IMG/VR virus record: IMGVR_UViG_2703718849_000006
Span: 1-24,131 of that record
Strand: one strand, 5' to 3'
Source of the DNA: a virus
Taxonomy: Duplodnaviria; Heunggongvirae; Uroviricota; Caudoviricetes
DNA: 24,131 bases
The notes below the pieces were generated by a model. It did no database searches. It was not told the origin of the DNA and worked only from the letters and a program-made list of their open reading frames with translations. Within the stretch, counting starts at the first letter, position 1. Every line of letters begins with the position of its first letter. Both the position numbers and the translations under genes were made by a program. Of this stretch, positions 1,936-1,980 are shown one piece after another.

Positions 1936-1980
1936 TTCTCCCACGTAGGCATTTCTGGGCGAGTTTCCGCCCACGAATTA
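1936..1980. other. putative cos-like / terminase recognition element (GC-rich dyad in AT-rich intergenic DNA)
   Basis: TCCCACG (1939..1945) and GCCCACG (1969..1975) are direct repeats flanking the imperfect inverted repeat GGGCGAG...CCGCCC (1957..1972), ~110 nt upstream of the small terminase gene. The GGGCG start resembles the lambda cohesive end. Position and symmetry only. Confidence 0.25.

Follow-up and report, generated by a model that had tools for sequence, protein, structure and literature searches.

The small terminase gene (terS) of the prophage sequence IMGVR_UViG_2703718849_000006 is preceded by an AT-rich intergenic region that contains a short GC-rich interval, which raised the question of whether a cos site lies there. 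We refer to the whole stretch of 24,131 nt as the window, and all coordinates count from its first letter. The intergenic region (1752-2082) separates a gene on the minus strand (1188-1751) from an ORF of 185 aa on the plus strand (2083-2640). The initial annotation had proposed a cos site at 1936-1980 from the base composition, a pair of direct repeats and an inverted repeat, and all of these features are present. First, the interval contains 53% G+C, compared with 24-27% elsewhere in 1752-2082. Second, the direct repeats TCCCACG (1939-1945) and GCCCACG (1969-1975) lie 30 bp apart. In addition, the arms GGGCGAG (1957-1963) and CCGCCC (1967-1972) were found, and a repeat finder drew the dyad better as ATTTCTGGGCG (1951-1961) and CGCCCACGAAT (1968-1978), which are complementary at 9 of 11 positions. 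Finally, the two further repeats that had been pointed out downstream, TCGATTGATA (2002-2011) and TCGATAAAACCGATA (2025-2039), are there. When the 45-mer was shuffled, an exact 6-mer direct repeat occurred in 8.7% of the shuffles and an equally good or better inverted repeat in 1.2%. Taken alone, the CCCACG direct repeat and the dyad are poor evidence.

The gene context was considered next to these features. The conserved site described below lies 150 nt 5' of terS on the same strand and is followed by terS and then by the genes for a gpA-type large terminase (terL), a head-tail joining protein and a lambda-family portal; that is, it adjoins a Nu1-type terS and a gpA-type terL in the same orientation. 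Characterised phages with a Nu1/gpA-type pair are cut at a cos beside the small-subunit gene (PMC4669245). The terS gene (2083-2640, plus strand) is intact and encodes a 185-aa, remotely Nu1-like small terminase, which matched phrog_57 (9.5e-17) and shares 99% identity with a protein from E. coli that bears the name terminase small subunit. It gave no Pfam match at E <=0.01 and fell below the PF07471 threshold; among its homologues, 11 of 34 matched PF07471, with a best E of 7.4e-6. When the TerS family was compared with lambda Nu1 by hhalign (profile-sequence), the probability was 74% (E 2.8e-5) and the alignment was collinear from the wHTH onward. In an AF2 model of TerS (pLDDT 70), helices 8-15 and 19-29 align to the Nu1 HTH. 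A Foldseek search of the structure against the PDB returned no significant match, and a sequence-profile search of the PDB was likewise empty. These comparisons suggest a remote relationship of TerS to the Nu1 family PF07471.

Searches of 50,697 phage records with the DNA (blastn) and with TerS (tblastn) produced zero matches, and close homology offered no characterised cos from which the assignment could be carried over. Nor was a close isolated phage found, the best TerL match being 36% identical. Escherichia phage DCP80 was rejected as a relative: its TerL is 36% identical, but the record is a T4-like one of 141 kb and lacks the motif. In this record (PQ671644.1), TerL is located at 1734-3716 and a weak TerS-like match at 25784-26206, 24 kb away. 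Such matches are odd in a Straboviridae record and may indicate a chimeric assembly.

In four other E. coli genomes, the similarity to the window begins at 1961, which is inside the dyad of the initial annotation. Their cargo on the left differs from that of the window, with an Old-family nuclease gene in place of the 8xMP/RipA gene. These genomes retain ATAGGTTCTCC, 18 unrelated bases and GGGAGTTTCCGCCCACG. Given that the two boxes were retained in them despite a different cargo, we compared the locus more widely. Loci were gathered in three ways, namely from TerS homologues in species genomes, from Logan/ENA contigs and by a pattern scan of IMG/VR. They were obtained from 11 species genomes, Logan/ENA contigs and 19 IMG/VR contigs, and 25 distinct sequences out of the approximately 40 loci were aligned. 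The comparison revealed a bipartite motif with the family pattern AGGTWCTCC, 17-19 nt, GCGAGTTTTCGSC, an AT-rich stretch and a third element. The window carries it as AGGTTCTCC (1933-1941), 17 nt and GCGAGTTTCCGCC (1959-1971), in a single match where 0.01 would be expected. Across the roughly 40 loci, the motif occurs once per element, invariably 5' of terS and on the same strand. Of the 19 bare-pattern matches in IMG/VR, two are in truncated loci, and all of the others lie in terS loci. An nhmmer profile of the core gave exactly one match per family locus and zero elsewhere in 580 kb. Six loci that were obtained solely through TerS or blastn similarity likewise contain the motif.

In about half of the loci, a minus-strand gene of 0.6-0.9 kb separates the motif from terS; the product is a PLD-family (PLDc_2) protein in one case and an unknown 186-aa protein in another. 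Despite the inserted gene, the three DNA elements stay within approximately 100 bp of each other. They therefore represent an autonomous DNA site and not a terS leader. We conclude that the interval holds a genuine, family-conserved, packaging-type signal.

The repeats cited in the initial annotation are incidental to this signal. Neither the (T/G)CCCACG pair nor the GGGCGAG/CCGCCC dyad is conserved as a cos feature: the first copy of the repeat and the left arm of the dyad are both missing in locus L002, which is 98.5% identical to the window. The halves of the repeat and of the dyad each occur in some relatives, and the pair is found only in the window's own lineage. The likeness to the lambda GGGCGG cohesive end, which had been offered in support, is coincidental. 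The right box corresponds in the alignment to lambda bp 14-25, which lie past the cohesive end on its right, and the GGGCG of the window straddles the boundary between the spacer and the right box.

We then considered each part of the motif. The left box (1933-1941, plus strand; consensus AGGTWCTCC) has an information content of 1-2 bits per position in the 25 distinct sequences, and in the family member L010 it reads GGGTCCCCC. It was compared with the Jilinvirus myoviruses HeidiAbel_Bas97, Arya and KA2-1. With the left-box PWM, the rank 1 position among about 82,000 in Bas97 lies approximately 105 nt 5' of terS, and Arya and KA2-1 read GGGTCCTTCC at the homologous position. Lambda reads GGGTCCT(TTCC) at 48473, of which we take the 7-mer GGGTCCT to be the cosQ of Wieczorek and Feiss 2001. 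With the same PWM, lambda cosQ ranks just 1047. CosQ is described as a conserved 7-bp site (PMC4669245). The left box is a candidate cosQ-like element; as judged from its sequence, it resembles the Jilinvirus cosQ-like box and, via Jilinvirus, lambda cosQ.

The spacer (1942-1958, plus strand) is 17 nt long in the window and 17-19 nt in the relatives, and is the candidate location of the nicks and the cohesive end. Its length is constrained, with 30-32 nt from the left-box start to GTTT in 25/25 sequences and a left-to-right box distance of 26-28 nt in the family. Its information content is <=0.45 bits at each position and mostly <0.3 (25 sequences). Neither a conserved cohesive-end sequence nor the twofold symmetry of cosN was found, and elements that are otherwise nearly identical have entirely dissimilar spacers. 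Selection acts on the left half of the overhang in lambda-like phages, and on the flanking CG dinucleotides as well (PMC4669245). A CTC...GAG twofold symmetry between the boxes, judged by eye, was dropped after its right-hand bases proved to vary.

The right box (1959-1971, plus strand; consensus GCGAGTTTTCGSC) includes invariant and near-invariant columns in the alignment, and its counterpart in lambda is bp 14-25, GCGGGTTTTCGC. With a PWM of the 12-nt right-box core, this lambda position (+14) ranked 2 of about 97,000; it starts 2 nt past the 12-nt cohesive end. The 12-nt core alone succeeds in this respect, as the lambda cos was not singled out by the full-length 16-nt right-box PWM or by the left-box PWM. 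Lambda was also not detected with a whole-motif nhmmer profile because the spacing differs. The comparison with cos sites of related phages, which had been proposed as a check, has given a match of the right-box core at lambda +14 and no characterised cos by close homology. Lambda grows normally when bp 18-29 are replaced (PMC4856287); therefore, the right-box match may reflect ancestry more than shared function. The shared block may be more important in the prophage family than in lambda.

To the right of this box lies an AT-rich segment (1972-2011, plus strand) with T and A tracts, and the interval 1981-2082 has 24% G+C. T-rich columns and a TATGTGA/TATATA element are conserved in the alignment. 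All members have the conserved segment followed by an AT-rich tract with T and A runs. The counterpart in lambda is I2, an AT-rich static bend at bp 18-50 between cosN and cosB (PMC4856287).

The third element, CATAACAA (2012-2019, plus strand), occupies a fixed position in the alignment, approximately 49 nt after GTTT, and has a near-invariant AC core. Its sequence class tracks the wHTH class of TerS and not the similarity of the TerS C-terminus. The TerS helix LAKQYGYDESTVRxW is paired with CCGMMCCGM, and the other recognition-helix class with CAWAACAW. This pairing holds in L018, L026-L028 and L033, whose TerS C-terminal domains lean to the other class. The covariation between TerS and the third element could in part be a product of physical linkage. 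The pairing parallels the TerS and cosB specificities of lambda, 21 and N15, and a single element would agree with the 'simple' cosB of N15 (PMC4669245). The third element is a candidate TerS-binding R site of a simple cosB. The initial annotation had suggested small-terminase sites at about 2003-2040; a TerS-class-specific sequence does lie in that interval, but it falls between the two repeats that were named.

The N-terminal DNA-binding and C-terminal domains of TerS are shuffled among lineages (L018, L020, L026-L028, L033). Class-A N-termini are found on L012-like C-termini, with the upstream DNA element following the N-terminal class, and the L020 TerS is a hybrid within the N-terminal region. 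Further to the right, the window has a dyad, ATCGATAAAACCGAT (2024-2038, plus strand), which may be an accessory protein-binding site. Its counterparts in L030 and L034, ATAGATAAAACCTAT and ATAGATAAAATCTAT, occupy the same alignment columns. Both arms are changed in them with the symmetry kept, and the TerS proteins there are 36-38% identical. The dyad is not general across the family. GATAAAAC recurs at 2073-2080, just 5' of the terS start, and is maybe a second protein-binding site.

Three known systems were compared with this architecture. Like lambda cos, the site shares its strand with a Nu1-like terS and a gpA-type terL and is located 5' of them, has a GCGxGTTTTCGC block that corresponds to lambda bp 14-25, continues into an AT-rich tract and then a TerS-specific element, and has a short conserved box on the opposite side, at the place expected for cosQ. 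Unlike lambda, the family lacks a lambda-like cohesive end GGGCGGCGACCT, and the stretch between the boxes varies freely. The boxes are 26-28 nt apart, compared with 43 nt from cosQ to bp 14 in lambda; there is one R-like element instead of the R3-I1-R2-R1 array; and the third element is approximately 49 nt from GTTT, compared with approximately 33 nt in lambda. In TerL, the family shares no more than about 25% identity with characterised gpA homologues.

The 'simple' cosB of N15 has a single critical R3 and an accessory inverted rR2 (PMC4669245). The family site likewise has one element that goes with the TerS class and keeps a constant distance to the presumed nick region, and the window has a second dyad downstream (2024-2038). 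The sequences are unrelated, however, and N15 retains a lambda-like cosQ and cosN.

The Jilinvirus myoviruses share the head-module order of terS, gpA-type terL, head-tail joining gene, portal gene and protease-capsid fusion. They also have AAGGTACTTCC or GGGTCCTTCC upstream and CGCRTAATTCGCG downstream, in the same order as in the family. In contrast, their boxes are spaced by 41 nt, the right box has another sequence (TAATTCGCG) and TerL is just 26-27% identical. We did not accept the first bases of the Arya and KA2-1 records as physical ends, since circular permutation was reported by the authors of Arya (PMC5754474) and the end of KA2-1 is irregular. The record of Klebsiella phage KA2-1 (PQ571296.1) starts with GGGGCAGTGCCAC, 13 nt before the right-box-like CGCATAATTCGCG. 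The same 13-mer is found approximately 57 nt from the right end and is followed by unrelated sequence; it may be a genuine cohesive end that was duplicated during assembly, or the result of misassembly.

In the light of these comparisons, the interval is probably a lambda-type cos, with a cosQ-like box, a nick region, an I2-like bend and a simple cosB. The prophages with this system form an uncultured family in enterobacteria and are AT-rich and 30-36 kb in size. A cos 5' of a Nu1/gpA-type terminase, as initially proposed, is the best-supported reading of about 40 loci and lambda, and the repeats and dyad by which it had been supported fail. By analogy with lambda, TerS would bind the class-specific element (CATAACAA, 2012-2019), about 50 nt to the right of the right box and across the AT-rich bent segment. 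Bound TerS would then anchor TerL over the right box (1959-1971), and TerL would nick the two strands at staggered positions, either within the 17-19 nt spacer (1942-1958) or at its edges. Packaging would run rightwards, with terS entering first. On arrival of the next cos, the left box (1933-1941) would act in a cosQ-like manner and permit the terminating cut. From this analogy we infer the cutting at the site, the nick positions and the roles of the boxes. Going by the alignment on lambda, the bottom strand would be nicked 1 nt to the left of GCGA and the top strand within the spacer; the terminase may instead cut inside the right box. The compact spacing and the unconstrained spacer would be new if virion ends confirm them. 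No contigs breaking at the motif were found in IMG/VR or among the TerS-carrying Logan/ENA contigs.

A more specific form of this proposal is a compact cos, in which the terminase is positioned by the two boxes and cuts the spacer without reading its sequence. We regard this form as tentative and, on balance, unlikely. If it is true, cohesive ends are free to differ between close relatives and the spacer is a private 'sticky-end code', and the boxes double as junctions for swapping defence cargo and packaging modules.

We weighed three other explanations of the motif. The first is transcriptional control of the packaging or late operon, with the boxes serving as -35 and -10 elements for a phage-specific factor, or as an activator or operator site. 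Two boxes with a length-constrained, sequence-free spacer of 17-19 nt have a typical promoter layout, and the site heads the structural operon. Neither box resembles a known promoter hexamer, however, and a scan found no promoter at 1933-1971. The sole plus-strand promoter-like match was a weak sigma-70-like one (ATAACA, 17 nt, GATAAT) at 2013-2041, which overlaps the third element. The convergent minus-strand gene of 0.6-0.9 kb that separates the motif from terS in about half of the loci does not fit a promoter. In L016, plus-strand genes lead directly into the site, so transcription can read through it, as in lambda. Furthermore, the right box matches cos-adjacent sequence in lambda, the left box matches the box upstream of terS in Bas97, and the third element tracks the DNA-binding helix of TerS and not any regulator. 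On this evidence, a promoter or operator function of the boxes is quite improbable.

The second explanation is suggested by the mosaic structure around the site. In at least five independent pairs, the elements are 86-100% identical over the 90 nt to the right of GTTT with unrelated spacers and left flanks, and the identity stops 0-6 nt to the left of GTTT. Elements that are 98-100% identical to the right of the site already carry unrelated spacers. The reverse exchange is seen in L012 and L027, which have a common left box, spacer and right box with different cosB classes. These exchanges show that constraint is limited to the boxes as islands and that the boxes serve as mosaic junctions. The boxes might accordingly be a recombination junction for the exchange of cargo cassettes, site-specific or by microhomology, without a role in packaging; the variable cargo on both sides would agree with this. 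However, no recombinase is tied to the site, and the serine recombinase acts at the yegD junctions. Breakpoints at the sole conserved islands are expected for any functionally constrained site, and a recombination junction leaves unexplained the similarities to lambda and Jilinvirus, the TerS-linked third element and the strict orientation to terS. It is also compatible with a cos. We consider a junction without a packaging role very unlikely. The breakpoints are compatible with recombination at cut cos ends. In lambda, cut cos ends are reportedly recombinogenic, according to Stahl's work.

An intrinsic terminator or RNA hairpin, formed by the dyad TGGGCG-AGTTTC-CGCCCA and a T-rich tail, is hardly credible and close to refuted at the family level: the one plus-strand terminator-like match (1956-1973, 0.3 expected) and the rarity of so good an inverted repeat among shuffles (9/11; 1.2%) speak for it, but the left arm is missing in L002, the T tail is poor (CGAATTATTT), both neighbouring genes in the window are on the minus strand so that no upstream plus-strand gene ends here, RNAalifold on 25 relatives gave -0.19 kcal/mol with two invariant pairs and zero covariation, and an Rfam match was absent. 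RNA-element readings were rejected after RNAalifold and Rfam.

Having arrived at a cos as the preferred reading, we considered the state of the prophage that carries it. In the window, terL (2555-4487, plus strand) is a pseudogene of the gpA type with at least three frameshifts and an in-frame stop, and the portal gene (5027-6519) is a pseudogene with two frameshifts. The GpA_ATPase and GpA_nuclease matches fall on separate ORFs. In a tblastn search with the intact TerL of L003 as the query, the terL pieces were found in frames 2, 1, 2 and 3, with the in-frame stop between 3601 and 3902. An element of approximately 30 kb and 36% G+C in yegD of E. coli NMBU-W10C18 matches the window at 98.4% identity and has a serine recombinase at its left end. 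The identical fragmentation is annotated in NMBU-W10C18 and four other E. coli genomes, so the decay is real and not a sequencing error; the breaks common to these five genomes therefore indicate a vertically or clonally shared dead prophage in yegD. The fragmentation of terL is likewise annotated in L001 and L002. The E. coli yegD element is rare (9/5,426 complete E. coli genomes), its other E. coli copies are full of IS elements, and L002 (E. coli STEC384) has an IS2 inside the protease/capsid gene. With both genes broken, a functional terminase and portal are absent from the window element itself. Since terL and the portal gene are pseudogenes, this decayed E. coli prophage most likely carries its copy of the site as a relic that no longer functions, unless terminase comes from a related helper. 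Both genes are intact in the relatives L003, L006, L009, L010, L012, L013 and L016-L019.

For the window itself, a remnant in a dead prophage, the practical meaning is modest. For the family, a confirmed cos would provide a packaging-site definition (AGGTWCTCC, 17-19 nt, GCGAGTTTTCGSC, TerS-class element) for prophages without a cultured member. The genome ends and the packaging direction would become predictable in these prophages, and the motif would mark two flanking cargo hotspots. In addition, the family would offer a natural series of TerS-helix/DNA-element pairs for studies of packaging specificity.

The cargo to the left of the site is variable. In the window it comprises two minus-strand genes (367-1751), one for an 8xMP/RipA-family membrane protein (367-1074; PF24838, 4.9e-30) and one for an unknown 187-aa protein (1188-1751), neither of which gave a PADLOC match. 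In L002 and L017, an Old-family nuclease gene is found in their place. The cos sites of P2/P4 are adjoined by variable cargo, part of which is for defence (PMC9122126). Highly variable cargo beside the site is a similarity to P2/P4, as is the Old-family nuclease in L002, L017 and L051. The phage family, the terminase type and the cos sequence are unrelated to those of P2/P4, and the cargo of the prophage family is found on both sides of the site.

The intact copies of the family were seen in Enterobacter, Pluralibacter, Pseudescherichia, Scandinavium, Buttiauxella and Phytobacter, and the E. coli copies seen were all degraded. The family is approximately 30-36 kb in size, AT-rich and without a cultured representative (L003-L013, L016-L019). 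Its gene content includes a serine recombinase, a Nu1-like TerS, a gpA TerL, a protease-capsid fusion and DUF2163/DUF6950 RcGTA-like distal tail genes. The cargo on the left side in the family consists of 8xMP/RipA, DUF3800 or Old-family nuclease genes; the cargo coordinates, over both sides, are 9873-11693 in L002, 4927-6747 in L017, 8302-9228 in L018, 3373-3933 in L012 and 919-3699 in L049.
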